The notes: generated by a model not told the origin, from the letters alone. DNA of 64,000 nt from Candidatus Bathyarchaeota archaeon (GCA_963715865.1 OY970280.1:2144001-2208000), one strand, 5' to 3'; positions 10,892 through 35,831 are shown, counted from the stretch's first letter. Made by a program: numbers and translations.

Positions 10892-11124
10892 AAATCCTTA
10901 CCGAGTTCTGTTAAAGAAAACCGCTTTGCCAAAAATTGCTTGCGACAGAAACTATTTAAGACATCGTTGTCTTTCAAAAACTTTAACCGGCAGTTAAAAC
11001 GGCTTTGGCAGCCCGCGAAAACGTGTACTCGGTGACTGCGGACCATCAAACAAAAAATTTGATGGCGATGAAAACATGATAGGAGCCCACAAATCAACAA
11101 ATTCGAAAGGTGCATGTATAGCAA
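10861..11124 (-). CDS. Possible small or degenerate winged-helix protein
   Basis: C-terminal half RFNCRLKFLKDNDVL...FSLTELGKDF resembles a wHTH wing; the N-terminus is unconvincing and the ORF overlaps the rSAM 3' end by 31 bp. Confidence 0.25.
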   Translation of the reverse strand: MLYMHLSNLLICGLLSCFHRHQIFCLMVRSHRVHVFAGCQSRFNCRLKFLKDNDVLNSFCRKQFLAKRFSLTELGKDFYGFCGGFFG

Positions 11125-11240
11125 CAGCTTCGGTGAAGCTTACAAAAAGTCACTTTAATTCTAATCTAACCCCAACTATTTTTGAACGTTAGGAGGCAAT
11201 CAGAATCTCACATGCTGGCCTTTCTAAAAGTTTCTGGGGA

Positions 11241-19626: not shown

Positions 19627-20598
19627 TTAAACGACTAAGTCTGCCATGTCTACACTGCGTTCATAAATCTGCCTAAGGAAAGACACCGCCGCCAAAAGTT
19701 GAGGCATCAAATCTAAAGAAGAGTCTTTTGCGACCCGTTCTATGCTTGAATAAGTTGCGTCGATTTTTCCCCGCAGGTTACGTACATTCTCTGCCAAAGA
19801 GATGTCTTTGGTTACAAAGGATTTCAACGCTTGCTCATGAGCTTCACAACAGATGGCTTGCAAATCAACCACCAACTTTTGCAGTTCCCCAGACAGCTTC
19901 ACTCCGTTGAGCGCTATTGCTTTAGCAGCCACCTGAACGCAGGCATCACCTATACCTTCAATTAAGCTTGCAGCCAAACGGTAATCCAAACATTCTATCG
20001 GAGTAATCCCAAGCTTCTCACTTAAACGTGGATTCTGAATTATTGTTCGCAAAATTCTAACCAACAAAAAATACAACCTATTACTCTCATCATCTCTGGC
20101 AACGACACTCTTAGCCAACTGCAAATCACCACAAATAAAAGAGGTAGCAACATCACGAGTCATCCCAGCAACAATGGCATAGTTACGTCGCAAAATTTTT
20201 TCAGGCAAAAACCCAGACGGCTCCAACAAGCACTGCAAAACTATCGCTGAAGAAGTCTCTTCGACAATCTCTAATCCAATTAGTGAACTTACAGTCAACT
20301 TGACAATGTTTCTGACATCATAAGCTATTCGGTCCTTTGCCTCAATGCGAATCACGTCATAACCAAGCAGATAACTACCAATAATTTCCCGACCCAAGTA
20401 AGGACCAACGCTTAAAGAAGCAATTCTAGGCTGCTGCTCAGCATCGTATTTTGAATCTACGACAAGCTTGCCGTTACTAGTTACTTCCAAATTCACTAAT
20501 TTGCCCTTTTTTAAACCGTTTTGTTGAGCCCAAGCTTTAGGCACACAAACAAAAAAAGTGCCCGTTGGCGTTTGTTGAACTTTGCGCAATTCACCCAT
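19627..20598 (-). CDS. phoU: Archaeal PhoU-family regulator with N-terminal AbrB/SpoVT domain
   Basis: RKVQQTPTGTFFVCVPKAWAQQNGLKKG AbrB domain; PhoU repeats RDDESNRLYFL and ERSVDMADL. Confidence 0.85.
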   Translation of the reverse strand: MGELRKVQQTPTGTFFVCVPKAWAQQNGLKKGKLVNLEVTSNGKLVVDSKYDAEQQPRIASLSVGPYLGREIIGSYLLGYDVIRIEAKDRIAYDVRNIVKLTVSSLIGLEIVEETSSAIVLQCLLEPSGFLPEKILRRNYAIVAGMTRDVATSFICGDLQLAKSVVARDDESNRLYFLLVRILRTIIQNPRLSEKLGITPIECLDYRLAASLIEGIGDACVQVAAKAIALNGVKLSGELQKLVVDLQAICCEAHEQALKSFVTKDISLAENVRNLRGKIDATYSSIERVAKDSSLDLMPQLLAAVSFLRQIYERSVDMADLVV

Positions 20599-20838: not shown

Positions 20839-22395
20839 ATGAGCGAAAAAGAAAAACTACAAAAAGCAATCGAAGCAACAATCGCAGCAGGATACCAACT
20901 AAATAGCGAAGCCTTTGAATTCTTAAGCCAAAACTCAGAGACGACCGATCCAGTCGGCATTATGAACTTAGCACTTCAAAGAATACAGGACTTACAGGAA
21001 AAACCAATCTTCATCGACAAAATTTTCTTAGAAACCTTACTACAACAGTTAACGGCGCCTATCCCAAAAACACAGTCCCAGCAACAGCAAAACGCCCTAG
21101 AACCACCAGAAAAACAGCAAACAAGTCTAGTTGAAAGCACTTTTTATCCGTACGCCAAGGATATAAAAGCAAGCATTAACGTTCTGGAAGATGCCACAGG
21201 CAAGCTTAGTTCCAACGGTACTCTCGAAGAATACTTGCAATATTTTCAAGACAGGTTTAAACGAATCGAACGCTTGTTAAGACAAAGAATCGACGTTAAA
21301 GCTGCAACACCGATACTAGAAGCGCTCAAGTCACCGGCTAAAACAAAACTCAAAATAATCTGTATGGTAACAGAAAAAAGAGAATCAAAAAATCAAATGA
21401 TACTATCAGTTGAAGATCTGCAAGGAAGCGCAACTGTCTTAGTGCCTCAAAAAGCACCAGAAGAAGTCCGCAAAAAAGCCCTACTTCTTTTGCTTGACCA
21501 AGTAATTTGCTTGGCAGTAATAAAAACAAGAAGCAACCTTTTCCTAGCTGAAGACATAATTTTTCCAGAAATAGGCAGAAAAACCCAACAAAGAGCCCAA
21601 GAACCAGTTTACGCTGTCTTAACGTCAGACCTTCACATTGGCAGCACTAAATTCCAAAAAGAAGCATTCAAACGATTCATACTCTGGCTTAATGGCAAAT
21701 ATGGAAACGAGCAAATGAAGGAAATAGCAAGCAGAGTAAAATATCTACTAATCGCAGGCGACATCGTTGACGGCGTTGGAATTTACCCCAACCAAGCAAA
21801 AGAGCTATCCATACGAGACGTGCACAAACAATACAACTTTGCTGCCAAGTACATGGAAAAAATCCCCGAGTACATCGAAATAATAATTTCTCCTGGCAAC
21901 CATGATGCCTCACGCAAAGCCTTACCCCAACCTGCCATACCACAAGATTATTTGAATGGACTTCAAGGTAAAAACATTCACTCAGTTGGAAGCCCATGCC
22001 TATTAAGCCTACATGGTGTGGAAGTTTTAATGTACCATGGCCGAAGCTTAGACGACATAATCGCTGTTATACCAGGAATGGACCATGAACACCCAGAAAA
22101 GGCAATGAAGCTACTCATGCAAAGCCGTCATTTAGCCCCACTTTACGGCGGCAAAACTATGTTATCACCCGAAAACCGAGATTACCTAGTAATAGACAGA
22201 GTGCCAGACATCTTCCACGCGGGGCACATTCACGTATTAGGTTACTGCAATTATCGTGGAGTACTGGTGGTAAATTCAGGCGGTTGGCAGGAACAGACAG
22301 AGTACATGGAAAAACTGGGGTTGGTCCCTACGCCAGGCAAAGTTCCAGTGGTGAACTTACAAACACTAGAAACAACCGTTCTCTCATTTAACTAA
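20839..22395 (+). CDS. polB: DNA polymerase D small (proofreading) subunit DP1
   Basis: SDLHIGS, AGDIVDGVGIYPNQ, PGNHD, YHGRS, RHLAPLYGG and FHAGHIH calcineurin-like motifs plus OB fold. Confidence 0.97.
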   Translation: MSEKEKLQKAIEATIAAGYQLNSEAFEFLSQNSETTDPVGIMNLALQRIQDLQEKPIFIDKIFLETLLQQLTAPIPKTQSQQQQNALEPPEKQQTSLVESTFYPYAKDIKASINVLEDATGKLSSNGTLEEYLQYFQDRFKRIERLLRQRIDVKAATPILEALKSPAKTKLKIICMVTEKRESKNQMILSVEDLQGSATVLVPQKAPEEVRKKALLLLLDQVICLAVIKTRSNLFLAEDIIFPEIGRKTQQRAQEPVYAVLTSDLHIGSTKFQKEAFKRFILWLNGKYGNEQMKEIASRVKYLLIAGDIVDGVGIYPNQAKELSIRDVHKQYNFAAKYMEKIPEYIEIIISPGNHDASRKALPQPAIPQDYLNGLQGKNIHSVGSPCLLSLHGVEVLMYHGRSLDDIIAVIPGMDHEHPEKAMKLLMQSRHLAPLYGGKTMLSPENRDYLVIDRVPDIFHAGHIHVLGYCNYRGVLVVNSGGWQEQTEYMEKLGLVPTPGKVPVVNLQTLETTVLSFN

Positions 22396-22410: not shown

Positions 22411-23652
22411 TCAGCTATCACTAATCGAGCGCTTATGAGAAACTTGCGGAGAATAATCGATTAAACGGCCAAATCGGCTATCACCGCCAAATACATCCTT
22501 AATAAGGCTTCGGGAAATTTCAAGCCTGATTTTTTTCGTTCTACCATACCGACCCATACTTACAACTTTCGCATTTACAAGACCCATGGAATCAAGCTCG
22601 TTAATTAAAGTGCCTAAACGGCGTTGTGTCAGAAGCCCAGCACCCAATTCGCCACAAAGTTCGTTGTAAACATCGTATATTTCGCCTGTAGTAGCACTTG
22701 ACTTGTTCAAGTGGTAAACGCTGAGAAGTACTAATGTGGAATGTAGCGTTAAATTTTTGAGAGCTTCAACCACTCGGTTATGCTCAATATTCTTCTCCGC
22801 CTGGCGTACATGCTCTTCTGTAATTACCTTAGCGCCTTGGCGCTCAGCAACTTCTCCAGCAACACGCAACAAATCCAGAGCTCGTCTCGCATCCCCATGC
22901 TCAGCAGCAGCCAAAGCTGAACAAATACTTAACGCTGAATCAGACAAAACGCCCTCTTGAAAGGATAATTTTGATCGTTCAAAAAGAATGTTTCGAAGTT
23001 CACCCGCATCGTACGGCCTAAAAACCAGTTCTTCCTCGCTAAGAGAACTAAAAACTCTAGGATCCAAAAATTCCTTCAATCGAAGGTCGTTTGATATGCC
23101 GATTATCGAAACCTTGCTCTTATGTAGAGTTTCATTTATCCTTGTTAGCTCATACATAAAAGCGTCTCCTCGGTCTTTGATCAAGGCATCAATTTCATCG
23201 AGAACTATGATAAAAATTATTCTGGAAGAATCTAAACCTGCTCTAAACCTATCAAAAACTTCACCAACAGACAAGCCTGTAAAAGGTATAGCCACACCAA
23301 GGTTTTGGCTTAGATTTGCGAAAACGCGGTATTCCGAACCGGTCATTCGGCAATTTATGTAACAAAATTTTACTGACGCACCATATTCTTTCGCCTTAGA
23401 TTCTAGATGGCTCAACACGTATTTTGTTACTGCTGTTTTTCCGGTTCCGGTTTGTCCATAAATAAAAATGTTAGAACATCTTGCATTCTTTAGGACTGGC
23501 GCAACAGTTTGTCCTAATAATCTTATTTGTTCTTCTCTGTGGGGTAATTTTTCAGGAAGATAATCGTGCCTCAGAACTTCTCTATCCTTAAACAATCGAA
23601 CTCCATTAACGAAATTTTCGAATACGTCATCTAATACGCTTGGATTTCCCAT
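22411..23652 (-). CDS. cdc6: Orc1/Cdc6 replication initiator
   Basis: LPHREEQI, Walker A GQTGTGKT, VLDEID, GDARRALDLLR and C-terminal wHTH ...GRYGRTK. Confidence 0.97.
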   Translation of the reverse strand: MGNPSVLDDVFENFVNGVRLFKDREVLRHDYLPEKLPHREEQIRLLGQTVAPVLKNARCSNIFIYGQTGTGKTAVTKYVLSHLESKAKEYGASVKFCYINCRMTGSEYRVFANLSQNLGVAIPFTGLSVGEVFDRFRAGLDSSRIIFIIVLDEIDALIKDRGDAFMYELTRINETLHKSKVSIIGISNDLRLKEFLDPRVFSSLSEEELVFRPYDAGELRNILFERSKLSFQEGVLSDSALSICSALAAAEHGDARRALDLLRVAGEVAERQGAKVITEEHVRQAEKNIEHNRVVEALKNLTLHSTLVLLSVYHLNKSSATTGEIYDVYNELCGELGAGLLTQRRLGTLINELDSMGLVNAKVVSMGRYGRTKKIRLEISRSLIKDVFGGDSRFGRLIDYSPQVSHKRSISDS

Positions 23653-23801
23653 TTACCCAATCTCACATTTTTCAGAGGCATCACTGTTATTTCGTGTGGA
23701 ACAGATAAAGCATATAGTACAAAAAACTGGTCTTGGAACACAATAATCCTAAAAAACGATGGAAACACTCGATAACAACTAAACAAAATGAGAGCAAGAC
23801 G

Positions 23802-23824
23802 CACCCCAATGTTTCTACTGGAAA
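23802..23824 (-). promoter_or_regulatory. ORB box 1
   Basis: Minus strand reads TTTCCAGTAGAAACATTGGGGTG, matching the archaeal ORB consensus (TCCAGTGGAAAC..GGGG). Confidence 0.9.
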
Positions 23825-23985
23825 AAAATCTTGTTTAAGAAGAAAATGACTTTATTTATATTAATGTAAATATACTCTGATAGGTAAGAAGTAATTTGGT
23901 ATATTAATAATTCCTATCCAAGATTTTAGATAAACAGTTTGCAAATATTTTTTCAAGCTTTCCTAGCTTCTTTTTAGCCTGAACA

Positions 23986-24008
23986 CTTCGAGAGGAAACA
24001 TAGGGGTG
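23986..24008 (+). promoter_or_regulatory. ORB box 2
   Basis: CTTCGAGAGGAAACATAGGGGTG, 18/23 identical to ORB1. Confidence 0.82.
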
Positions 24009-24140
24009 CCCCTCCAAGTATTTTCCCAATGGTAAATTAAATTATTAAAAGCGGTAGTTAAGTTGTTTTAACCGTAACTAATTAAATTCTAAACAAAGTA
24101 TATTTTCAGAATTTTCGCGCTAAAGCCTTCCTATTTTTAG

Positions 24141-24441
24141 TTCACAAAACTGTGAATCCGTGTGAAATAGCATTAAAATTGTTCCTTTCTCAAGTCTCTT
24201 TTCATATAAATTACCCTTTTCCTGTCCTTTCCCTGTGAATAAGGCACCCCTTCACTTCTACTGGAAAAGTAAAACAAAGCCATAACTAAATTTTTTTAGC
24301 TGTTTCACTTTAGCGTGAAGCTGGTTATTGTAAAAAAACTGTATTTTTAATCGTTTTTTAATTTACAAGCTTGATATTGCCTTTTTTAATTCCTTTGTTT
24401 CACCATAACAGCTATAAGTTGTGAAGTGTAAAGCTTGTGAA
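24141..24441. repeat. TTCAC/GTGAA box array at the right edge of oriC
   Basis: Ten TCAC/GTGA hits (24142, 24152, 24162, 24235, 24252, 24305, 24315, 24400, 24421, 24437), all in TTCAC context; two form TTCAC-N6-GTGAA palindromes. Confidence 0.75.
24245..24267 (-). promoter_or_regulatory. ORB box 3
   Basis: Minus strand reads TTTCCAGTAGAAGTGAAGGGGTG; the first 12 nt and the GGGGTG tail are identical to ORB1. Confidence 0.88.
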
Positions 24442-24463
24442 CAACCCTTAAGGTGTGCACCTA

Positions 24464-24892
24464 ATGCCAGCTCGTAAAATACGCGTTGAGCTGTTCGATA
24501 GCGATGGTAATCGATATACTATTGCTTTTGAGGGTCAGGTAACCCGTGATAAAGCTCTACGCCTCTTGGATCTTGTAGAATTGCTAGGTGGTGTACCGGG
24601 TGAGGGTCCAACTTTAGGTACAGGGGCTTCTTTACCAAATCGCGTCCTTTCGCGCTTTGAAAAAGTTCAGTTAGTGATTCAGAAAAGTTTTCCGTTAATT
24701 TGGTTTTCTTCAAAGGATATTCAGTCGATTTATGAGCAGGAACTTAAAGAGCCAATTAGCCTTAGTACAGTTTCCACTTATCTTTCAAGGATGGCAGGCA
24801 AAGGTATGCTTTTAAGGACTGGTGGACAAAACAATTTGAAGTATAAAACTGCAAACATTTCTCAAGCGACTATAAAGCAACGCATAAAGTAA
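24464..24892 (+). CDS. oriC-flanking protein with small N-terminal domain and C-terminal winged helix
   Basis: N-terminal IRVELFDSDGNRYTIAFEG; C-terminal SSKDIQSIYEQELKEPISLSTVSTYLSRMAGKGMLLRTG wHTH pattern; ATG at 24464 follows an AGGTG SD. Confidence 0.8.
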   Translation: MPARKIRVELFDSDGNRYTIAFEGQVTRDKALRLLDLVELLGGVPGEGPTLGTGASLPNRVLSRFEKVQLVIQKSFPLIWFSSKDIQSIYEQELKEPISLSTVSTYLSRMAGKGMLLRTGGQNNLKYKTANISQATIKQRIK

Positions 24893-24977
24893 CTTGAGCA
24901 GCTAAGTGACGCAAAGCATAAAACTAAATTTAGTGTGACTAAGGATTGATTCCGTGAGCGCTTAGGGTAGAGTACAA

Positions 24978-25997
24978 TTGGATAAGAGTATTGAAGTAGA
25001 CTTCGGCGAAATGGAACATAAACTTAAATGTTATATTGATAAAGGCAGAATCGCTCTTGGAAGTCAAGTAAAAGAAGAACCGTTAGTAGCGGTAAAACCT
25101 GATGCTTCACTAATTAGGCCTCTAAAGAAAGTTACTACGTACATGGGCAGTTTCATTGCTGTTGACTGCTCCACTCGTACTTTAAAGCGAGCAAATAATT
25201 GGGGAGTATACTTAATGCGCGCCTCATGCGTTTCAGTTAGAGAGCGCGCAGTTGATTGGAGCTACTCAGAGAGAATTTGCACTGTTGTCGGGGACTCGCA
25301 TGTACGTAGGAGTTACCTGCAGGATTTTAGGATTGAATTAGAAAGTCAAGTTGCTCTGCGAATGCTTAAAGAACAACTAAGTAAGCCTTACCACGTACAT
25401 GGGGATGTACGTAGTATGTACCTTCTCCTAGATGGTGGTGGCTACTTTGGTGGTGAACGAAAGTTTAGAGTATCTCTTTATGAGGAATGCAAGAAAAATG
25501 GTGTTAGGCTTTTAGCCATCAGCAAGAATTCTCCTTCAATGCATGATGAGAAAGGCAGAGACTTAGTCGCTACTACGTACACCATGACCTCTCATCCAAT
25601 TTGGGTGTATTACCCCGTGCGGAAAGCAGACAAAGACAGAAGCTTGTATGGCGATATCGCTATCGTAAAGCTATGCGCTGAAAGCCAGCACGTTTTCCGT
25701 TGTGACATAATGGATTATCTTACCCAACAAGATATTGTTGAATTGCTTTCACCTTTAACCAGCGTCTGTGAGGATCCTCGATGTGTAGGTTATCCAATAA
25801 GCCTCTACTTGGCACACGAATTCTCGGCCCCTTCAAATTCTATGCTGTTTTCTTATCATGACCAGATTGAAGATAAACTAAATGAAGCAGGATTGCTTGA
25901 TGCTCTGAGAAGAGAAGAACGTTCATGCAGTTTTGCAGATGAGATTCATGGAGTAAAACACGCGTTTGAATGGGAGATGTGGGATGACCAATACTGA
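24978..25997 (+). CDS. nurA: NurA-family nuclease (divergent)
   Basis: FIAVDCS and LLLDGG catalytic Asp motifs, LAISKNS, GYPISLYLAHE. Confidence 0.82.
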   Translation: MDKSIEVDFGEMEHKLKCYIDKGRIALGSQVKEEPLVAVKPDASLIRPLKKVTTYMGSFIAVDCSTRTLKRANNWGVYLMRASCVSVRERAVDWSYSERICTVVGDSHVRRSYLQDFRIELESQVALRMLKEQLSKPYHVHGDVRSMYLLLDGGGYFGGERKFRVSLYEECKKNGVRLLAISKNSPSMHDEKGRDLVATTYTMTSHPIWVYYPVRKADKDRSLYGDIAIVKLCAESQHVFRCDIMDYLTQQDIVELLSPLTSVCEDPRCVGYPISLYLAHEFSAPSNSMLFSYHDQIEDKLNEAGLLDALRREERSCSFADEIHGVKHAFEWEMWDDQY

Positions 25998-27513
25998 TTC
26001 AATAGGATTTGTTTGCGGAACAAAGGGCGATTCAGTTTCATTTCTAGTCAGCAAAAACATCGGATTATCGTTTGGCCAAATAGTACGCATTGACTCTGGC
26101 GAAAGAAACTTTTATGCCCGGGTCGTTAATTCTGAAAGCAGTTCAACCCTTGAAACAATAGAACAGTTGCGTGAGGCAGAAGGCAAAGAGGCATTTGGAC
26201 CATATTCAGCTTACAGAAGTGTGGAAGCGATCCTGTTTTTGGAAAAGAGAGGCGATACTTTGCGTTCGCCAACATTTAACCCAAACTACCGTGACAGAGT
26301 ATACGCCTCAACCGACGAAGACTGCTCCATATTAAAGCTCTCAGGCGAACTTGAAATTGGGTGCTTGCGTTCAGAAGACCAAGTCCTAAGCTCAGTAGGC
26401 ATAAACATTGAAGCTATACCCAAAATGATGGGCATGTTCGGCATGACCGGCTCTGGAAAAACAAACACCGAATTAATCATAAATGCTCAACTAATCGATA
26501 ACAGTCCAAGAACTGTGGCTCTAATTTACGACTTTGCCGGGCAACTTCTAGAGGGAAAAGAAATTAAAACACAAAGAGGTCTAAAAGATCACCCCTTATT
26601 CCACAGCAAAGTCCAATTCTACTCAGCTCAGGATGGAAAAATGGCTGTGGGCTTAAGCACTATAATCCCTGGCAAACTCGAAACTCTGTTTCCTGATATT
26701 CAGCCTCCTCAAAAACGGCTGGCATGGGCCTTGTATAGGCATTTTGGAGCTGACTGGATTCAAAGTGCCAGAGAACTGTATCATAATGAGGGAAACGTTG
26801 GTGTCCGTGCGCAAAAAGTTGTTGCTGACGCACTGATGCAAAAGCTCTCCTCCCTATCAAGTGACCTCTTCCCAGCTTCTAATTACAGTTTTGTTGAAAG
26901 TGTCCTTCAGAATATATGCAAAGGCATAACCTGCTTAATCGACATTTCAGGGCTTCGTTCGGAAGATCAAAACCGAATCGTTTGTTTATCTGCATCAGCA
27001 GTAGCTGAACATTATAAGCGTATGTGGGAAGATAACTTCGAGGAATGGCGAAAGCTTCCTACGCTGCTAATAACCCTTGAGGAAGCACACGAGTTTCTTG
27101 ATCCAAATAAGCCTCGGACAATTTTTTCTGATATTGCCCTTACATATCGCAAGTACAGGGTTGGGCTTAACGCTGTGACTCCAAGGCCTTCAAGGATTAA
27201 CTTTGACGTGTTTGCTGAGTTGTGGACTAAAGTGATAATGAAAACAGAGTTGAAGAAGGATAGACTTTACTTGACTGAAAATACTCCGTACATGGAGTAC
27301 AGTGAAACAGAAATAAAAATGCTTGACGTCGGTGAAGCTTTGCTTATTTCAGAGCCAAAGATCAAATTTGCTGTTCCAATCAAGGTAACGCATTATCCAG
27401 AGTACCTAGATAAGCATCGCAGGGTTGATTATGGGCTTCCTGATTCACCGAAACTTACGCAGATGGATGAGCGTCTTAAACGGTTGAGTGGGCAAGAGAC
27501 GCCTTCTTTGTAG
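25984..27513 (+). CDS. herA: HerA-family ATPase (divergent)
   Basis: N-terminal HAS-barrel-like region, Walker A GMTGSGKT, Walker B ITLEEAHEF, YRKYRVGLNAVTPRPS; start overlaps the nurA stop. Confidence 0.85.
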   Translation: MTNTDSIGFVCGTKGDSVSFLVSKNIGLSFGQIVRIDSGERNFYARVVNSESSSTLETIEQLREAEGKEAFGPYSAYRSVEAILFLEKRGDTLRSPTFNPNYRDRVYASTDEDCSILKLSGELEIGCLRSEDQVLSSVGINIEAIPKMMGMFGMTGSGKTNTELIINAQLIDNSPRTVALIYDFAGQLLEGKEIKTQRGLKDHPLFHSKVQFYSAQDGKMAVGLSTIIPGKLETLFPDIQPPQKRLAWALYRHFGADWIQSARELYHNEGNVGVRAQKVVADALMQKLSSLSSDLFPASNYSFVESVLQNICKGITCLIDISGLRSEDQNRIVCLSASAVAEHYKRMWEDNFEEWRKLPTLLITLEEAHEFLDPNKPRTIFSDIALTYRKYRVGLNAVTPRPSRINFDVFAELWTKVIMKTELKKDRLYLTENTPYMEYSETEIKMLDVGEALLISEPKIKFAVPIKVTHYPEYLDKHRRVDYGLPDSPKLTQMDERLKRLSGQETPSL

Positions 27514-27515
27514 GT

Positions 27516-28232
27516 TTATGTTTGTTGGCTGTTTTCGGTTTTCTTTAGTAGCTTTTCCATCTCTTTTTTGATACTGTACCTAAAGGGTATTTTGCCTACT
27601 TCCCTTTCCAAATAGCCTTCTTCATAAAGTTTCTTCATCAGTCTTGCTGTGTGCTCCCTGCTAAGTTGTACTCTGTCTTTGACTTCCGGCGCTGTCTTGG
27701 GGCCTTCTGAAGATAACATTTCCAGCACTGCAATTTCTGTATCTGTTAATGCAGCCATTGCTTTATCACGCTTGATTGGTATAACAGGTTCACCTTTAAT
27801 TTCGGGAGCAACAGTAAACTTTTGGATTTGCTCTTCAAAACCAGTTATTTTCACCCTTAACGTTTCCTGGGAATCTTCAATATCTTTGATTTTCGATTCC
27901 AAACTGGTTAATCCTGATAAAATGTTAGTGTTGTTCTGTGAAATAGCGCTGACTTGATTCTCTAAAGGCGCCATCTTCTTTTCAACGTTGTCCATCTTTT
28001 TAAGGCTTGTATCAGCTTTAGCAGAGCTTCCCTCAACTTTGTATGCAATAAGTTCTAATCTGTCGGCTTCACGCTTGAGTTCTCTGTTAAAACTGAGCAC
28101 AATGTCTTCGACAATATCCTTAGCTTTCTCGTATTCTTTTTGTGCCTTGCGTATTTGCCTATAATACTCCACTGATGCTGCTACTGTCGCAGCCAGCAAA
28201 ACGCCTAAGATTACAAGTGCAAAGTCAACCGT
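27516..28232 (-). CDS. Membrane-anchored coiled-coil protein with C-terminal winged helix
   Basis: Frame extends 5' of the called TTG (28199) to complete a TM helix VDFALVILGVLLAATVAASV; about 130-aa heptad-rich stalk; wHTH LTDTEIAVLEMLSSEGPKTAPEVKDRVQLSREHTARLMKKLYEEGYLER; start placed at ACG 28232 (uncertain). Confidence 0.82.
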   Translation of the reverse strand, partial: TVDFALVILGVLLAATVAASVEYYRQIRKAQKEYEKAKDIVEDIVLSFNRELKREADRLELIAYKVEGSSAKADTSLKKMDNVEKKMAPLENQVSAISQNNTNILSGLTSLESKIKDIEDSQETLRVKITGFEEQIQKFTVAPEIKGEPVIPIKRDKAMAALTDTEIAVLEMLSSEGPKTAPEVKDRVQLSREHTARLMKKLYEEGYLEREVGKIPFRYSIKKEMEKLLKKTENSQQT

Positions 28233-28245
28233 GCTTTTCCACCCC

Positions 28246-28354
28246 TGTGATTTAAGCGTGATTTAATCAGTTGCATCACACATCACAGTTCCCCATGGAC
28301 TTTTTAAGGTTTGCGGTGACATTCCCGCATGTTCTTATGATATCACACATCACA
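28246..28354. repeat. RTCAC box array 1
   Basis: Seven TCAC/GTGA hits; GTGATTTAA twice (28247, 28258); exact 13-mer ATCACACATCACA twice (28275, 28342). Confidence 0.85.
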
Positions 28355-28499
28355 ATCTTTTCTTTTGACTACTCCCCTCCCTGAAAGCCTGCTAAAACTC
28401 TTTAATTTAAGCTTATTTTGGCATTTAGGGCTTAAACGTAGCACGTGCGCTTCAATCTTTTTAACTTTAATTTTCTAGCTAAAAATTGTTGCTTAGTCC

Positions 28500-28519
28500 T
28501 GTGATTTGTGACGTCACAA
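28500..28519. repeat. RTCAC box cluster 2
   Basis: TGTGATTTGTGAC is an 11/13 match to the reverse complement of the 13-mer; perfect 14-bp palindrome TTGTGACGTCACAA at 28506-28519. Confidence 0.75.
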
Positions 28520-29014
28520 GGGCTCTTCTGATGGGCTAGAAAGCCGTTTTAGGCTTGTTTCAAGCTCTTCCCGTATGATTTCTATGACTTTTAGATGGTC
28601 CTTTAGTTCCTCTTCCTTGTCAGGTGTGCCTTGATGTGCCTCGACATATTCGTGCAGTTTATTGGCTATTTCGAGATACGGGTCAAGAGTTGTGCTATCA
28701 AACACTCCTAAGTACCCTAAAAGTAGCACTGTATAAATCGATTTTATCACGTTTTCTTTGGACTGTTTTAACGTCCTGTTAAAGGCTCCGCGGCTTATTT
28801 TTGCCTTAGTTAGCCTTAAGTTGGCTTTTTCGTCGTATTTTAGCTGTTTGCCCGATATATTTTCGGCTAAAACGTCTATTAACAGTGTTTCAAGCTGTGT
28901 TTTGGTTAATTGGCTGTTTTTAGCGAGTATTTTGACAATGGGGTCGTTTAACGCTCCTGTTAACCATGCTTGAACGCTGTCTTTAAGCTTCAAACTGCTC
29001 ATCTCTTCCATCAT
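28514..29014 (-). CDS. Hypothetical protein with a Tfx/sigma70-region-4-like HTH
   Basis: LTKTQLETLL...YDEKANLR...ISRGAFNRTLKQSKENVIKSIYTVL resembles Tfx-type HTH spacing; the HTH call is pattern-based only. Confidence 0.7.
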   Translation of the reverse strand: MMEEMSSLKLKDSVQAWLTGALNDPIVKILAKNSQLTKTQLETLLIDVLAENISGKQLKYDEKANLRLTKAKISRGAFNRTLKQSKENVIKSIYTVLLLGYLGVFDSTTLDPYLEIANKLHEYVEAHQGTPDKEEELKDHLKVIEIIREELETSLKRLSSPSEEPL

Positions 29015-29367
29015 CTAAATGAATACACTTTTGTATACTGACTCGGGCTTTTTAAGGCTTATCCAATCAAAAATATGATCCTTACCTGCTATTAAAGCAG
29101 CCAAAAAACGGGTGAAATAGGAAAAGAAAGCAAAACAACTGCTCTTTGCAATTTAGAGGAATAAATGGCATATTTAACATATAAACGACTAAAATATTGA
29201 CTATTTAGCGGGCGCTTTCACGGATTTTAAACGATAATTACAGTTTTAAAACGTTTACTTGTCTTCTACTCTTTCTTATTTGGCAATTTTACTTTCTACT
29301 GCCAAATTATCGTTGCTCTTTATTTTGTAATCTTTTCAGGCCTTACTTTTTCCCTCATCAACTTCAG

Positions 29368-29483
29368 TGTGATTGGGTTAATAGGATTCGTGACGTCACC
29401 TGTCACGTTAAAATCACGCTGATTTAATCAAAAATCACTTGATATCACAAGATTGTGATACGTTTGTGATTTCTAATTATCAC
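29368..29483. repeat. RTCAC box array 3
   Basis: Ten TCAC/GTGA hits in about 115 bp; palindromes GTGACGTCAC (29390-29399) and TATCACAA-GA-TTGTGATA (29443-29460). Confidence 0.88.
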
Positions 29484-29512
29484 TATCTTCCAAGACTAGC
29501 TGCTATGTTTGT

Positions 29513-30355
29513 TTAGAGACTCTCTGAATATTCTTTTAATTTATCAAAAAGTTCAGGTCGCAAATCCCTTAAGGTAGGGATAAAGGTCTCTGCAGCTCTT
29601 AAGTCGCTGTAATCTACTTCACAGGTGATAAAGTCTTCTTCGTCATACTTTGCCTTTGCAAGAACGTCTCCAGTTGGGCTAACCAACCTGCTTCCTCCCC
29701 AAAATTGTAAGCCATCCTCAACGCCGGCAAGATTCACGTATGCAAGAAAAGCTGTGTTTTCTAAAGCTCTTGCAGCAGTTAATATTTCAAAGTAGCTCCT
29801 ACGTACAGCAGGCGACGCAGATATGCAAACTATCAGCTGTGCACCTTTCAATCGTGTAAGTCTAAGCACTTCTGGAAAGAAAACGTCATAGCATATGCAT
29901 AAACCTATATTTCCCAAATCAGTTTGGAAGGCAGCTGGTTGATAGCCAAGTCGGAAATATCTTTTCTCTTCGAATACGCTGTGAGTTGGCGGATACATTT
30001 TACGATATTTACCGATTAAACCTTGAGGTCCTACTAAGACTGCAGCGTTAAAGACCGTTGCTTGTGTTTTTTCGCTTAACTCCGGCATCCCAAAAATAAT
30101 ATGCATCCCTGTTTTCTTTGCTAATGCCTCTACTTTCTCAACTGTTGGTCCAGGTATTGTTTCAGCCAACTCATAGATTTGATCCCTGACTACGTAACCA
30201 GTCAACGAAAGCTCAGGGAAAATAACCAGATCCGCCGCTTGCTCCTTGGCTTTAAAGGTCAACTTTTCTATTTTCTGCAGATTCTCATTTTTGCTTTCAC
30301 GTTTGCTGCTTATCTGAGCAAGCGCAAGTTTAATTTTGTCCTTCATGTATTCCAC
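29513..30355 (-). CDS. Carbon-nitrogen hydrolase (nitrilase superfamily)
   Basis: E-K-C triad in FPEL, YRKMY and ICYD; FWGGS. Confidence 0.93.
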   Translation of the reverse strand: MEYMKDKIKLALAQISSKRESKNENLQKIEKLTFKAKEQAADLVIFPELSLTGYVVRDQIYELAETIPGPTVEKVEALAKKTGMHIIFGMPELSEKTQATVFNAAVLVGPQGLIGKYRKMYPPTHSVFEEKRYFRLGYQPAAFQTDLGNIGLCICYDVFFPEVLRLTRLKGAQLIVCISASPAVRRSYFEILTAARALENTAFLAYVNLAGVEDGLQFWGGSRLVSPTGDVLAKAKYDEEDFITCEVDYSDLRAAETFIPTLRDLRPELFDKLKEYSESL

Positions 30356-30358
30356 TTT

Positions 30359-31210
30359 TCAATAAGTATGTCTTGGAAGCCTAAAATCGTTTCCTACTGT
30401 TCTGTATCCAATTTTTGGAGCTATTGGCATTCTTCTTTTGTGTTCATTTGCTAACCATCTGGTCTTTACCTTTTCAACAATAGACTTCTGAATGCTTAGT
30501 TGATTTGCAATCTCTTCAGTAGTCATAAACCGCTCCAGCCCGTAAAGAATGAGGTCTAAGGTTTCATACTTGATGCCGAGTTCGTTTTCTGCAGTTTGGT
30601 TTGGCCAAAGTGCTGGTGTAGATGGTTTTAGCGCGAGTTCTTGTGGGATTCCTAAATGAATTGCGAGTTTGCGAACTTGCGTTTTATATAAATCCATTAT
30701 TGGCGTTATGTCTGCTGCCGCGTCTCCCCACTTTGTGAAGTAGCCCATCATTGTTTCTGATTTGTCAGAGCTTCCGCAAACTATTCTGTTAAGTTTGTTA
30801 GCGTAGTAGTAAAGGTAAATCATTCTAGTTCTTGCTTTAATGTTACCTTTACAAAGTCTATCTGATGGATCAAACACAGGAATAGCCTTGTAAAAGCATC
30901 CTAAAACAGCTGACATATCGCAGATTTGTGTTTCCAATTTGAATTTTTCTGCAACCACCCTAGCGTCATCAATGTCTTTTTGGTTAAACGTTTCCTTTTC
31001 CGGAAGCATAAGCCCTAAAACATGCTCTCCGCCTACTGAGAGACTTGAAAGCGCCGCTGTTGTTCCACTATCAATTCCTCCGGAAAGTCCAAGAACTACA
31101 CCCTTTGCTTGTGCGTTTTCGACGTACTCTTTAATGAAACGGCAAATTCTTTTTTCGGTCTCAGAAAAATCCAAGTCTAACACAGAAGAAGTTAACTTCA
31201 CTTGGCTCAC
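30359..31210 (-). CDS. nadE: NAD+ synthetase (synthetase domain only)
   Basis: LGLSGGIDS, GNIKARTRM, GYFTKWGD, DLYKTQVR and KPSTPALWPNQ. Confidence 0.96.
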   Translation of the reverse strand: MSQVKLTSSVLDLDFSETEKRICRFIKEYVENAQAKGVVLGLSGGIDSGTTAALSSLSVGGEHVLGLMLPEKETFNQKDIDDARVVAEKFKLETQICDMSAVLGCFYKAIPVFDPSDRLCKGNIKARTRMIYLYYYANKLNRIVCGSSDKSETMMGYFTKWGDAAADITPIMDLYKTQVRKLAIHLGIPQELALKPSTPALWPNQTAENELGIKYETLDLILYGLERFMTTEEIANQLSIQKSIVEKVKTRWLANEHKRRMPIAPKIGYRTVGNDFRLPRHTY

Positions 31211-31299: not shown

Positions 31300-31566
31300 T
31301 TGGGGCGAAGAAGGAAAAAAGTGGTTCACATTCCTAAGAAACGTTTGCCTAAATTCTTCTCTTGCCCTAAATGTGGAAAAGAAACAGTAAGGGTTGAAAT
31401 ATTCAGAGAAGACGGCCACGCTGTTGCACGTTGCAGTAGCTGCGGTCTTAAGGAAGAATTCCCAATTAAACCTGCCCAAGGCGAAGTTGACGTTTACTGC
31501 ACGCTCACCGACCGCGTTTATGGTTCCACAAAAAGAGCAACTGTAACAAACGTAAAAAAAGAGTAA
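31300..31566 (+). CDS. elf1: Transcription elongation factor Elf1
   Basis: MGRRRKK start, FSCPKCG...CSSCG zinc ribbon, VDVYCTLTD. Confidence 0.88.
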   Translation: MGRRRKKVVHIPKKRLPKFFSCPKCGKETVRVEIFREDGHAVARCSSCGLKEEFPIKPAQGEVDVYCTLTDRVYGSTKRATVTNVKKE

Positions 31567-31582: not shown

Positions 31583-32335
31583 ATGGTAGGGCCTGTCGAG
31601 AAGTACTTGCTCGAAAAAATAAAGACCCAAGGTTCAATCCACATAACTCTTGTTGATCCAGAAAAAATATCAGCCTCAGATGCTTCGCGTATTGCTGAAA
31701 ACTCTGAAAATAGCGGAACCTCCGCCATTATGATTGGAGGCTCAACTTTTGTTTCTCAAGCTCACCTTGACGATGTGGTAAAAGCCATTAAGTCCACTGT
31801 AAATATTCCCGCAATACTTTTCCCAAACAATATAACTGGAATAAGCAGCCACGCAGACGCCATATGGTTCATGTCACTTTTAAATTCGGTTGATCCTTAC
31901 TTTCTTATTGGCGCCCAGATTCTTGGAGCTCCACTCGTTAAAAAGTATGGTTTAGAACCAATTTCTATGGGCTACATTATTGTAGGCGAAGGTGGCACTG
32001 CTGGCATAGTAGGCAAAGCGATTTCAGTACCGTATAATAAACCTGAATTAGCAGCCGCTCACGCTCTTGCTGGCCAATACCTTGGAATGCGCTTCATTTA
32101 TCTTGAAGGAGGTTCTGGAGCAGCAAATCCTGTGCCCCCAGAAATGATTCGTGTAGTCAAACATTTGCTTGAAATTCACCTCATAGTAGGTGGGGGAATA
32201 AGAACTAAAGAGCAAGCGATAGCTGCTGCCTCTGCAGGAGCAGACATAATCGTAACTGGAAACGTCACTGAGACCAATGATGCCAAGCAAAGGGTTTCTG
32301 AAATCATCGAAGCAATCAAGGGCCTTAAGGTTTAA
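31583..32335 (+). CDS. Geranylgeranylglyceryl phosphate synthase
   Basis: HITLVDPEK, IMIGGST, MGYIIVGEGG, YLEGGSGA and VGGGIR. Confidence 0.95.
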   Translation: MVGPVEKYLLEKIKTQGSIHITLVDPEKISASDASRIAENSENSGTSAIMIGGSTFVSQAHLDDVVKAIKSTVNIPAILFPNNITGISSHADAIWFMSLLNSVDPYFLIGAQILGAPLVKKYGLEPISMGYIIVGEGGTAGIVGKAISVPYNKPELAAAHALAGQYLGMRFIYLEGGSGAANPVPPEMIRVVKHLLEIHLIVGGGIRTKEQAIAAASAGADIIVTGNVTETNDAKQRVSEIIEAIKGLKV

Positions 32336-32420
32336 GGTTTGAAGTCTGCTTAGCTTTTCTATTTAGTTTTTAGAAAGCCAAAATAACCCATTACTCTATA
32401 TCTTGAGGTGGAGCTGCGCT

Positions 32421-35400
32421 TTGAATATCAGCAAGGGCTATCAGAACTACGTTGAGACGATGGAAAATCAGCTAAAGCAATTGTATGCCATAAGCGACAG
32501 CGCCAGATCAAAAGGCTTTGACCCATCATTAAAAACAGAGTCCATTATTGCACAAGACATCGCTGACTTAGTAGAAGGGCTGGTAGGACCCAAAGAAGTG
32601 GCACTCAGCATCAGAGAATTAAGCACTAAAATGCAAAGAGAAGAAATCGCATTTAAAGTTGCTGAAGAAATTGTTTACGGCAAATTTGGTCACATGGAAC
32701 CTGAAAAAGCAGCTGAGCAGGCAATTCGAACTGCCCTTGCAATTTTCACTGAAGGCTTAACTGCAGCGCCAATACAAGGCATAGCTCAAGTCAAAATAAA
32801 AACTAACGCTGATAGGACACGCTATTTGGCGATATACTTTGCAGGGCCAATCCGGTCTGCGGGCGGGACAGACCAGGCATTAACTCTTGTCGTAGGCGAT
32901 TTCGTGCGCCGCCAGTTAGGCTTGGATAGATATAAGCCTACAGATGAAGAAATCTCCCGTTTTATAGAAGAGTTAAGATTGTATGAACGGTCGGTAGGCC
33001 GTTTCCAATACCACATTCCCGATGATGAATTAAAGAAAGCGCTTAGTTTGCTTCCTGTTGAAGTCACAGGCACTGAATCAGACCCTGTAGAAGTCTCTTC
33101 ATACAGAAATCTTCCAAGAATCGAGACAAACCGCGTAAGAGGTGGTGCACTCAGGGTGGTTAACGACGGTATCGTAGGGCGCGCTCAAAAGGTTTTGGTA
33201 ATTATTGAAAAGCTCGGTTTCCAAGGTTGGGATTGGCTAAGAGAATTCCGAAAGAAATCCGAGAAGAAGTCAGGCGGCTTCATGGATGACGTGATTGCTG
33301 GGCGCCCAATTTTCTCTTTTCCTTCACGGCGTGGCGGCTTCAGGTTAAGGTATGGCAGATCGCGAAACACTGGCCTCTCAGCTGTAGGCATCCATCCTGC
33401 CACAATGCTTGTACTGGAGCGTTTTCTTGCTACAGGCACACAAATGCGCTTAGAACTTCCGGGGAAAGGTTGCGTTACAGTCCCAGTGGATAGCATTGAG
33501 CCTCCTATTGTTTTACTGAAGGATAATTCAGTCGTTCGAGTGTGGCTGGAAAATTTTGCCGAAGTTAAAGGCAAAATCCAAAAAATCCTATTTTTAGGGG
33601 ATATCCTGATTAGTTTTGGCGATTTTCTCTATACCAGTAAGGGGCTTTCGCCTTCAGGATACGTTGAGGAATGGTGGGTTAAAGACCTACAGAGTGTTCT
33701 TACGGAAAAATTCGGCTCAGATCACGAGAAAGCAGCGGAAGTTGCTCAGGTTTCTTTAGGAAGACTGAATATTTTTCTGGACGACCCGTTTAGCAACAAA
33801 CCTACAGCTAAAGAGGCGATACTTCTTAGCTTGCACTTGGGCGTGCCTTTGCATCCAAATTTTACGTTCTTCTGGACAAGCTTATCCTCGGTTCAAGAGG
33901 TTGAGTTTCTGAAAAAGTGGTTGGCTTCTTCTGAAATTACCTTGGAAGATGGCGTTGTTTGCAGAATTTTGGGAGAGACCAACGAAGGTATTGTAGGGTT
34001 ATTGCGGAAAATCCTTGTTCCGCATAAACTAGTAGGTGATAAGATTTTGCTGGAAGGTGAAGATGCGGTCGCTTTGGCCTTCTGTCTTGGTTACGGTACC
34101 ACAAAAATGGTTGAGGGCACGCAGACTGCTACAGCGTTGGAAGCAATTAGCCTGCTTTCTGGAGTGCAAGTTAAAGATAAAGCGCCTACCTTTGTGGGTG
34201 CACGCATGGGTCGACCTGAGAAGGCTAAAAGGCGAGAGATGAAGCCGCTTGTTCACGTTCTATTTCCAGTAAGCTTAGCTGGCGGTTCGCACAGGGATCT
34301 TTTGGAAGCGGCAAAGCAGGGTCCTGTGTTTGTTGAGATAACTAAGAGGAAATGCCCAAACTGTAAAACTTACACTTTAAGGGTAAAATGCTCCAGTTGT
34401 GGATGTGACACTATAGCAGAGAATAGTTGTCCTCGTTGTGGTAAAGCTTTAAAGGATAACAGTTGCCCCACCTGTAAAACGGATGCTGTTCAGTACCAGC
34501 GGCAGCCGATTAACTTCAAAGACTTAATCGATACTGCATGCAGGTCACTTGGTTATCCAGTTCCAAAACTCTTGAGGGGCGTTAAAGGATTAACTAATCA
34601 AGATAAGACTCCTGAAATTATCGAAAAGGGTGTTTTGCGGGCAAAATATGATTTGTCAGTGTACAAGGATGGAACAATCCGCTTTGACGCTACCAATGCT
34701 CCCTTAACACATTTTACGCCTGCCGAAATCGGAGTGCCCGTTGAAAAGATAAGGCAGCTAGGATACTGTTACGATATCCATGGCGCATGTTTGACTGATC
34801 CTAATCAGGTTTGTGAGCTTAGGGTTCAGGATGTTGTGATTCCTTGGCGAGCAGGAGAATACTTTATTCAAATTGCGGATTTTATTGATGACCTACTGAC
34901 AAGAGTCTACAAGCTTCCCTCTTACTATAACGTTAAGAAGCCTGAAGACCTTGTTGGGCATTTAATTTTAGGTTTAGCTCCCCATACATGCGCATGTATT
35001 TTAGGGCGCATAGTTGGTTTTACTGATCGTAATGTAATTTATGCTCATCCTATTTGGCACTCAGCCAAACGCCGAGACTGTGACGGTGATGAAGACGCTA
35101 TCATGCTGGCGCTGGATACACTTCTCAACTTCTCTCGCGTATACTTGCCTGCTCAGATAGGCGGAATCATGGATGCTCCCCTACTCTTAATTCCGTTTGT
35201 TAACACGAAGGAAGTGCAAAGACAAGCCCACGATTTTGATGTTGACGCAACTTATCCGCTTGAATTCTACCAAAAAACTCTTGAGAAAGCTGAAGCTAGG
35301 TCAGTGAGCTCTATTATGGACGTTATCAGTCATAGGCTTGGGACTGAAGCGCAGTTTGAAGGGTTCAACTACACCACTCCCGTGTCAAACATAAACCTTG

Positions 35401-35831
35401 GTAACGCTAACAGTTCCTATAAAGAATTCAAGTCCATGATTGATAAACTGAATATGCAGCTGGAGTTAGACGAAAAAATTGACGCTGTGGACGTCAGGCG
35501 TGTCGCCTTAAAAGTCTTAACAACTCATTTTATTAGAGACATAGCGGGTAATTTGCGTGCTTTCTCAACGCAAGCGTTTAGATGTAAATCATGCAACAAA
35601 AAGTTTCGTCGATTGCCTCTCAAAGGGAAATGCCCTTTTTGTGGGGGAAAGTTAACTCTCACTGTTTACCGTGGCGGTATAGAGAAGTATCTGGTGGTGG
35701 CACAGCAACTTGTTGATAAATACGGCTTACCAAAGTATTATACTCAGCGCATGGACCTGATAAAAGAAGAGATAGCTTCTATGTTCGATAACAAAAAGCC
35801 AAAGCAGGCCAGCCTTTCCGATTTTACCTAA
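32421..35831 (+). CDS. polC: DNA polymerase D large subunit DP2
   Basis: GPIRSAGGT, RLRYGRSRNTG, GARMGRPEK, catalytic RRDCDGDED and C-terminal Zn finger; probable TTG start at 32421 after a GAGGTG SD. Confidence 0.98.
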   Translation: MNISKGYQNYVETMENQLKQLYAISDSARSKGFDPSLKTESIIAQDIADLVEGLVGPKEVALSIRELSTKMQREEIAFKVAEEIVYGKFGHMEPEKAAEQAIRTALAIFTEGLTAAPIQGIAQVKIKTNADRTRYLAIYFAGPIRSAGGTDQALTLVVGDFVRRQLGLDRYKPTDEEISRFIEELRLYERSVGRFQYHIPDDELKKALSLLPVEVTGTESDPVEVSSYRNLPRIETNRVRGGALRVVNDGIVGRAQKVLVIIEKLGFQGWDWLREFRKKSEKKSGGFMDDVIAGRPIFSFPSRRGGFRLRYGRSRNTGLSAVGIHPATMLVLERFLATGTQMRLELPGKGCVTVPVDSIEPPIVLLKDNSVVRVWLENFAEVKGKIQKILFLGDILISFGDFLYTSKGLSPSGYVEEWWVKDLQSVLTEKFGSDHEKAAEVAQVSLGRLNIFLDDPFSNKPTAKEAILLSLHLGVPLHPNFTFFWTSLSSVQEVEFLKKWLASSEITLEDGVVCRILGETNEGIVGLLRKILVPHKLVGDKILLEGEDAVALAFCLGYGTTKMVEGTQTATALEAISLLSGVQVKDKAPTFVGARMGRPEKAKRREMKPLVHVLFPVSLAGGSHRDLLEAAKQGPVFVEITKRKCPNCKTYTLRVKCSSCGCDTIAENSCPRCGKALKDNSCPTCKTDAVQYQRQPINFKDLIDTACRSLGYPVPKLLRGVKGLTNQDKTPEIIEKGVLRAKYDLSVYKDGTIRFDATNAPLTHFTPAEIGVPVEKIRQLGYCYDIHGACLTDPNQVCELRVQDVVIPWRAGEYFIQIADFIDDLLTRVYKLPSYYNVKKPEDLVGHLILGLAPHTCACILGRIVGFTDRNVIYAHPIWHSAKRRDCDGDEDAIMLALDTLLNFSRVYLPAQIGGIMDAPLLLIPFVNTKEVQRQAHDFDVDATYPLEFYQKTLEKAEARSVSSIMDVISHRLGTEAQFEGFNYTTPVSNINLGNANSSYKEFKSMIDKLNMQLELDEKIDAVDVRRVALKVLTTHFIRDIAGNLRAFSTQAFRCKSCNKKFRRLPLKGKCPFCGGKLTLTVYRGGIEKYLVVAQQLVDKYGLPKYYTQRMDLIKEEIASMFDNKKPKQASLSDFT

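Follow-up and report, generated by a model that had tools for sequence, protein, structure and literature searches.

An ancient gene island beside a predicted replication origin of Bathyarchaeia with three probably autoregulated DNA-binding factors

The stretch of DNA analysed here, referred to as the window, is a 64-kb segment (positions 2144001-2208000) of the single-contig 2.35-Mb genome of a Bathyarchaeia member (OY970280.1) and contains 82 open reading frames (ORFs). Positions are counted from the first nucleotide of the window, unless they are given as genome positions. The part of interest holds a predicted origin of replication (oriC) beside the gene of an Orc1/Cdc6 initiator (Cdc6-A), followed by the genes of three predicted DNA-binding proteins, i.e. 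a small winged helix-turn-helix (wHTH) protein named wHTH145, a protein with a transmembrane (TM) helix, a coiled coil and a wHTH domain named TMCC, and a Tfx-like HTH protein named p166. A NurA-HerA pair lies between the first two of them. All these genes had been placed by a preliminary description of the same DNA, in which they were taken together as a segregation or origin-anchoring module, and the placements proved correct by ORF and Pfam checks. Genes, motifs, uniqueness in the genome, positions relative to promoters and phyletic co-occurrence were established directly. The features concerned are as follows.

22411-23652, minus strand: gene of Cdc6-A; oriC separates it from the divergently oriented wHTH145 gene
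23801-24263: oriC core, three origin recognition boxes (ORBs) in both orientations with AT-rich DNA between them
23801-23820, minus strand: ORB1, 20-bp element
23990-24009, plus strand: ORB2, 20-bp element
24244-24263, minus strand: ORB3, 20-bp element
24141-24443: ten TGTGAA/TTCACA boxes, between ORB2 and ORB3 and from ORB3 to the wHTH145 start
24464-24892, plus strand: wHTH145 gene, preceded by an 802-bp spacer
24978-25997, plus strand: NurA-like gene, an accessory insertion as judged from its distribution
25966-27513, plus strand: HerA-like ATPase gene, likewise judged an accessory insertion, overlapping the end of the NurA-like gene
27516-28232, or to 28235 with a probable ACG start, minus strand: TMCC gene
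28247-28287: TGTGAT array A1, over the expected TMCC transcript start and leader
28316-28354: TGTGAT array A2, which together with A1 brackets a TATA-like element at 28301-28308
28500-28518: site A3 of composite type (GTGA-N3-GTGA-N2-TCAC), extending over the stop codon of p166
28514-29014, minus strand: p166 gene
29023-29036: palindrome ATACA-N4-TGTAT of the p166 core promoter, with a TATA-like element at about 29049-29058
29369-29484: array B (116 bp, ten GTGAY/RTCAC boxes), situated close behind the stop codon of a CN-hydrolase gene and separated by about 350 bp from the p166 promoter downstream of it

Cdc6-A was assigned by Pfam (Cdc6_lid, 1.2e-25; Cdc6_C, 2e-24). The 20-bp pattern shared by the ORBs has three matches in the whole genome, all of them at ORB1-ORB3, by which the ORB boxes of the preliminary description were confirmed as real, and the DNA around them is AT-rich (GC of 0.36-0.37 at 23-25 kb). 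Repeated ORBs in both orientations, an AT-rich region and an adjoining initiator gene, by which an archaeal ORB-type oriC is recognized, were all found here, and the three-ORB layout was found again in most Bathyarchaeia loci checked. Because the ORBs are unique in the genome and the DNA between them is AT-rich, the predicted oriC beside cdc6 is considered well founded. GC skew and Z-curve analysis of the whole genome gave a weak signal without an extremum at the locus and was uninformative for origin mapping. A second Cdc6 paralogue (28% identity) is encoded outside the window, at genome positions 1484560-1485660.

The spacers of the locus had been described as packed with TCAC boxes. The enrichment itself is real. 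The two spacers that flank p166, 779 bp in all, contain 21 GTGA/TCAC boxes where about 4.3 would be expected, and the densest 200-bp bin of the whole genome falls at 29251-29600 (10 GTGA/TCAC boxes against a mean of 1.1). Two classes can be told apart among the boxes, TGTGAA being found next to oriC and TGTGAT in the surroundings of TMCC and p166, and a third, unrelated motif, the ATACA-N4-TGTAT palindrome, is located at the p166 promoter. Genome-wide scans for TCACAnnTCACA, GTGA-N2-TCAC, ATACA-N4-TGTAT and hexamer clusters yielded few further strong sites, and a wider regulon was neither shown nor excluded by these scans. In the 85-bp spacer between wHTH145 and the NurA-like gene (24893-24977), 3 GTGA boxes were counted against 0.5 expected, neither class being clear among them.

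The wHTH145 protein (142 amino acids, starting with ATG at 24464) gave a weak Penicillinase_R match in Pfam. Its AlphaFold2 (AF2) model consists of an N-terminal domain with a beta-hairpin and a helix, a disordered linker and a C-terminal winged helix of a generic MarR/RosR/MecI-like type, for which the predicted local distance difference test score (pLDDT) was 85-91, and the family comprises 475 clusters. At the locus, its boxes are confined to the ORB2-ORB3 interval and to the interval from ORB3 to the wHTH145 start. Upstream of wHTH145 genes throughout the class, the TGTGAA consensus was recovered with A in 87% of cases after GTGA, in arrangements including TTCAC-N6-GTGAA. Clusters of at least three TGTGAA/TTCACA boxes per 80 bp occur three times in the genome, one of them at oriC. 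The other two lie outside the window at genome positions 1890156-1890218 and 1532737-1532787, and the first of these, which is intergenic, could be a further target of wHTH145.

The distribution of wHTH145 was determined among 151 genomes of the class. It was found in 87 genomes, all 87 of which also have a Cdc6-A orthologue, and in none of the approximately 52 genomes without Cdc6-A. The divergent Cdc6/wHTH145 pair is also present on an Odinarchaeia contig. Two distant wHTH145 homologues without an adjoining cdc6 still stand beside 2-3 canonical ORBs, with about 0.005 expected by chance, and three other distant homologues have neither cdc6 nor ORBs alongside. wHTH145 therefore appears, from its co-occurrence and position, to track the origin, and its link to the origin is rated as strong. 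The spacers of 890-990 bp upstream of the two ORB-associated homologues (locus L176, 3014-4000; locus L177, 3108-4000) carry 2-3 ORBs, with no cdc6 within 4 kb and with HypF downstream, and are possible orphan origins. Prediction of a complex between Cdc6 and wHTH145 from their own alignments gave a score of 0.00, which counts neither for nor against binding.

TMCC consists of an N-terminal hydrophobic helix, a coiled coil of 100-130 residues recognized by coiled-coil-type matches, and a C-terminal wHTH domain of the MarR/TrmB/Lrs14 type, with no extracellular or ligand-binding domain. The wHTH domain (residues 162-212) matched HTH_27 (27.3 bits, cut-off 22.2) and MarR (25.8 bits, cut-off 24.6) in Pfam and matched TrmB and Lrs14 weakly, and its recognition region REHT..R..K..L is invariant among the homologues, 55 of 61 of which have the N-terminal TM-like segment. 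In family f34 (loci L062-L064 and L072), TMCC occurs without this helix, as a natural soluble variant, and cdc6 lies on the other side of p166. The start codon of TMCC appears to be non-canonical, probably ACG at 28235-28233, and the residues upstream of 28232 are conserved. Within the genus, the start appears to be ACG or ATC (ATC-ACG in most) and lies inside an ATCAC box, and one member (G018, locus L014) has ATG at this place and a broken box; selection for the ATCAC box may override the TMCC start codon. A locus search with the TMCC alignment returned close Bathyarchaeia alone among more than 597 matches, and the taxon range was not widened by it.

The layout of A1 and A2 round the TATA-like element of TMCC is kept order-wide and in Nitrosopumilus, site A3 is kept in all order-level loci shown, and array B is strongly conserved in the genus and present in some other families. 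Throughout the class, the TGTGAT boxes upstream of TMCC genes are arranged as palindromes of the form GTGA-N2-TCAC and as direct repeats (7 and 11 bp), the tandem boxes of 7 bp occurring in pairs or triplets only. With a threshold of at least 5 GTGAT per 100 bp, two clusters were found genome-wide, both at this locus. The composite unit TCACAnnTCACA has 3 of its 6 genome sites at this locus, and it recurs at the TMCC promoter in two other complete genomes with 3 of 6 (G040) and 3 of 4 sites (G013), respectively. TMCC was found in 107 of the 151 class genomes and was not found in families f14, f20, f23, f25, f26, f27 and f36. Loci without TMCC, sampled from six of these seven families (none from f20) together with one f35 genome, have no dense arrays beside p166, the median number of boxes per 200 bp being 9 with TMCC and 4.5 without it. 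Because of this absence, the TGTGAT arrays appear to track TMCC.

The third protein, p166, is present in a single copy in 126 of the 151 class genomes and was also found in other classes of the phylum by profile search. Its AF2 model (pLDDT 78.6) has an HTH of the sigma70-r4/LuxR/Tfx type at residues of about 33-100 and a C-terminal helical hairpin. The HTH was superimposed on LuxR and sigma-4 domains with Z values of 6.4-7.2 and on the Tfx protein EnfR (8hno) with a Z value of 6.6 (root-mean-square deviation of 1.3 Å, 29% identity over 52 residues). No match of p166 was obtained in Pfam, in PDB by sequence, or in PDB by Foldseek with E values up to 0.001, and the HTH was recovered solely by the wide VIA search. 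The dimeric EnfR (TON_1525) recognizes a pseudo-palindromic promoter sequence (PMC10570040). The sigma70-region-4-type HTH is common to p166 and EnfR, whereas the TFX_C alpha+beta domain of the Tfx family is missing in p166, the C-terminus of which is an all-helical hairpin (TM-scores to Tfx clusters of 0.37-0.44). The ATACA-N4-TGTAT palindrome occurs four times in the genome and sits between the TATA-like element and the p166 start in Nitrosopumilus as well as in almost every Bathyarchaeia family checked. Halfway along the 498-bp spacer upstream of p166, a further promoter-like block (about 29219-29253), composed of a TTTAAAC-type A/T element and a conserved downstream stretch, is kept in the genus. 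No ORF or Rfam family accounts for it, and an Rfam scan of 23600-29600 with E values up to 1 gave nothing. Two short stretches at about 29262-29310 with an ORB-like look were dropped, as they are not conserved in the genus alignment.

The neighbouring genes that frame this part of the window are as follows.

19627-20598, minus strand: PhoU/AbrB
20839-22395, plus strand: PolD DP1
29513-30355, minus strand: CN-hydrolase
30359-31210, minus strand: NadE
31300-31566, plus strand: Elf1
31583-32335, plus strand: GGGPS
32403-35831, plus strand: PolD DP2

Seven genes make up the conserved island, in the order PolD DP1, Cdc6, (oriC), wHTH145, TMCC, p166, GGGPS and PolD DP2. The order cdc6-oriC-wHTH145-TMCC-p166 was found in 20 of 20 order-level loci and recurs in the majority of class-level loci. 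In 40 class-level loci from other families, 32 of which belong to genomes with Cdc6-A, p166 lies within 10 kb of Cdc6-A in 31 of these 32, even after rearrangement (e.g. f34). In Nitrosopumilaceae, the island genes are in identical order and orientation, and 7 of the 82 window ORFs recur there, with no others; the annotation of the Nitrosopumilus proteins is 'hypothetical'. Conserved linkage to oriC, as well as arrays conserved together with the locus in relatives, both of which had been named as supporting evidence in the preliminary description, were thus found. In both classes, GGGPS, which catalyses the first committed step in the synthesis of archaeal membrane lipids, is fixed between p166 and PolD DP2 (Nitrosopumilaceae loci L075 and L089-L091). 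In the Nitrosopumilus locus L089, a 53-amino-acid AbrB/SpoVT-like gene (10977-11138) lies between TMCC and wHTH145, and the Nitrosopumilus boxes near the wHTH145 gene read GTTAAC, not GTGAA.

Four families (f24, f21, f18 and f33) have neither Cdc6-A nor wHTH145, yet p166, TMCC and the arrays are kept in them between DP1 and DP2. Given this retention, neither these two genes nor the arrays are dependent on this origin, and the link of TMCC and p166 to the origin is weak. In f24, 32 of 33 genomes carry the second Cdc6 type only, and the loss of both Cdc6-A and wHTH145 implies a change of origin in this lineage.

The NurA-like protein had no Pfam, NCBIfam or PDB sequence match; its language-model feature score to NurA clusters was 0.95 and all of its 100 nearest atlas clusters were NurA (feature similarity only), and its gene holds the nurA position, overlapping the herA start. 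The HerA-like protein matched DUF87 (PF01935; 33.7 bits, cut-off 23.2, 5.3e-8) and, over residues 115-474, the HerA structure 4d2i in PDB (E value 1.2e-15), by which matches a HerA central ATPase domain was recognized. All its NCBIfam equivalog scores were far below the cut-off, and PADLOC gave weak HerA-type matches alone, with no defence system assigned. Seven of the 20 order-level loci have the pair between wHTH145 and TMCC, and a HerA orthologue was found in just four other families of the order, in none of the 24 other genomes (species) of the genus. At the locus itself, the pair was absent from all 40 class-level and all 20 phylum-level loci. A HerA pseudogene with internal stops is present in another family (G032, C43:12290-13757) and a HerA C-terminal remnant in a genus member without NurA-HerA (G018, L014 10270-10403). 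The remnant and the pseudogene point to a repeated loss of NurA-HerA. In other loci, the equivalent gaps are filled by HypF or an aminotransferase, which are likewise unrelated genes. With such a distribution, the pair cannot be kept as the module part for which it had been taken, and it is, by comparison of the loci, a lineage-specific accessory insertion outside the conserved unit.

All three motifs are arranged round promoters, which agrees with DNA-binding factors that regulate themselves, and archaeal repressors commonly bind over or downstream of the TATA box. The locus is accordingly best described as an ancient origin-side island with three autoregulated DNA-binding factors, each paired with its own promoter cis-element, and a probability of about 0.6 is assigned to this reading. 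Each motif class lies on the core promoter of its own gene, which is a layout of autoregulation and comes near to the outcome of mere local autoregulators that the preliminary description had set against its own module. The pairing of binder and motif, repression, dimerisation and membrane location were inferred from sequence. The working of the locus would be as follows. wHTH145 would bind the TGTGAA boxes interleaved with ORB2 and ORB3 and serve as an accessory or regulatory factor at the origin or the cdc6 region. TMCC would be a membrane-anchored, probably dimeric coiled-coil wHTH protein, which would bind the TGTGAT arrays bracketing its own TATA box and transcript start and flanking p166. 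Its occupancy would block the transcription machinery, giving negative feedback, and, because TMCC is proposed to be anchored in the membrane, would also keep this DNA, which lies at a distance of 4-5 kb to the ORBs, attached to the membrane. p166 would repress itself via its palindrome, and NurA-HerA would take no part in the system.

Several points weigh against the autoregulated island. Purely self-regulating factors would have no output, and therefore further targets or a structural role must exist; strict-motif scans of the genome yielded no further targets. Simple operator logic accounts neither for array B, with its distance of about 350 bp to any core promoter, nor for A3, which lies on a stop codon, and 9-17 boxes are well beyond ordinary operator needs. 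The TM helix is absent in family f34 and two other lineages, and the phyletic counts represent non-independent events.

The arrays could alternatively belong to a dedicated device for tethering the origin to the membrane or for segregation, in which TMCC would assemble on the four TGTGAT clusters in a centromere-like manner and position or separate sister origins, with autoregulation being secondary as in omega/parS or SegB. We regard such a device as unlikely, while several features agree with it. TMCC is composed of TM helix, stalk and wHTH only, the arrays are locus-specific and the densest in the genome, and their distance of 4-5 kb to the ORBs is kept in two classes. The 9-17 boxes, including 7-bp tandem units, resemble the WATCACW heptad arrays of omega, the ribbon-helix-helix (RHH) ParB of pSM19035, which serve as operator and parS (PMC9499535). 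In both systems, TCAC-core boxes in direct and inverted orientation, partly with a 7-bp period, overlap the system's own promoters, and by analogy the TGTGAT arrays could have both functions, those of an operator and of an assembly site. However, omega is an RHH binder with 7-10 contiguous heptads and a ParA partner (delta), whereas the binder in this archaeal chromosome is likely a wHTH protein and the boxes stand in groups of 2-3 with gaps, short of the at least four contiguous heptads of pSM19035 parS, without ParA. No RHH match was found among the locus proteins, for which the candidate binders are wHTH or HTH proteins.

The SegAB system of Sulfolobus (PMC5120986) offers a second likeness, as SegB is an archaeal site-specific binder with palindromic sites just upstream of its own operon, that is, of segA, which were proposed as centromere analogues. 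SegB always follows the ParA-type segA and has no membrane anchor, whereas no such ATPase is linked here, and no relation to SegB was found in Pfam or NCBIfam scans of the locus proteins. The absence of a ParA/SegA ATPase from the window, as previously noted, holds for the locus proteins and the conserved island, the nearest PF13614 gene being about 98 kb away. In the absence of a linked ParA-type motor, there is no support for a machine of the ParABS or SegAB type. RacA-DivIVA and Noc are DNA-binding proteins that bring chromosomal sites to the membrane, Noc by binding it directly. They use many sites over large chromosomal regions and have other folds (ParB-like in Noc), whereas TMCC carries a predicted integral TM helix and one locus only is rich in its presumed sites. 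A membrane tether formed by TMCC is possible on the sequence features, because there is no sensor domain, the multi-box arrays are unique in the genome, array B is distant from promoters and one site lies on a stop codon. It is weakened because TMCC, p166 and arrays persist in the four families without this oriC, whole families with this origin have no TMCC, and the f34 homologues among others have no TM helix. In sum, for the earlier segregation or anchoring module, the linkage to oriC and the conservation of the arrays stood, while NurA-HerA and dependence on this origin did not.

A reading of the three proteins as ordinary transcription factors, with regulons unrelated to replication and with proximity to oriC as mere inherited order in a stable island, is improbable in our estimate. 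All three have common regulator folds and have motifs on their own promoters. TMCC shares its winged helix with the MarR/TrmB/Lrs14 regulators, to which it adds the TM helix and the coiled coil in the absence of a ligand-binding domain, and its boxes resemble the half-sites TATCAC/GTGATA of the TrmBL1 motif, the palindrome spacing of which differs from GTGA-N2-TCAC. The island includes the non-replication genes GGGPS and Elf1, it remained unbroken by the insertion of HypF, an aminotransferase or NurA-HerA between its members, and the distant wHTH145 homologues are not always by cdc6. Against these points, just the seven island genes of the 64-kb window stay together across two classes, wHTH145 never occurs without Cdc6-A in the 151 genomes and keeps to ORB DNA even without an adjoining cdc6, its boxes lie between ORBs, and a second motif-rich target was not found in the genome by motif scans.

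NurA-HerA as an integral, DNA-pumping part of a segregation module with the HTH proteins is very improbable and largely refuted by distribution. HerA belongs to the FtsK-HerA superfamily, and in 7 of 20 order-level loci the pair stands in the gap from wHTH145 to TMCC, preceded by the spacer with three GTGA boxes, but it was found in none of the 24 other genus genomes, is decayed in G032 and G018, and was not found at the 40 class-level and 20 phylum-level loci. Finally, a remnant of an integrated plasmid or virus with a partition cassette and iteron-like arrays was rejected as scarcely credible, since, although short repeat arrays by small DNA-binding genes are typical of mobile replicons, the locus is conserved vertically and as a single copy across classes, with a fixed place in the chromosome; an integrase, a Rep gene or a bordering tRNA was not seen in the stretch, the composition of which is not distinct apart from AT-rich spacers.

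Beyond the autoregulated island, two undescribed origin-side functions are put forward tentatively, both ancestral to Bathyarchaeia and Nitrososphaeria and reaching into Asgard. wHTH145, as an accessory factor interleaved with the ORBs, would control firing or the expression of cdc6 and be functionally analogous to UBP of Sulfolobus, and TMCC would pin origin-proximal DNA to the membrane via its genome-unique TGTGAT arrays. UBP, with its ucm site, is likewise a small sequence-specific binder, with a site inside oriC near ORBs and in company with Orc1/Cdc6 (PMC12141716), as the wHTH145 boxes lie between ORB2 and ORB3 and by ORB3. It is an abundant nucleoid protein with more than 300 sites and a gene away from the origin (PMC12141716), whereas the wHTH145 gene is at the origin and three box clusters were counted in the genome; the likeness is one of position and description, and no sequence relation was seen, though none was tested for. 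The literature searched contained no description of the wHTH145, TMCC and p166 families, nor did it name a segregation or origin-accessory factor in Thaumarchaeota or Bathyarchaeia. In the Pyrococcus-type origin region, oriC stands beside orc1/cdc6 and the PolD DP1/DP2 genes, and to our knowledge the three DNA-binding genes and their motifs between cdc6 and DP2 are not part of that region as described.

Most of what is known on the control of origin firing and on the positioning or separation of chromosomes in archaea comes from Sulfolobus and haloarchaea. The module offers three gene families, each with a defined DNA motif, which are present in Nitrosopumilus, a genus that has species in culture (e.g. 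N. koreensis AR1 and N. piranensis), and therefore the question of a role at the origin is directly testable. If TMCC did tether the chromosome to the membrane, this would be the first such case described for archaea. If the three proteins are only autoregulated regulators, the locus still defines a deeply conserved origin island of seven genes, with NurA-HerA outside it.

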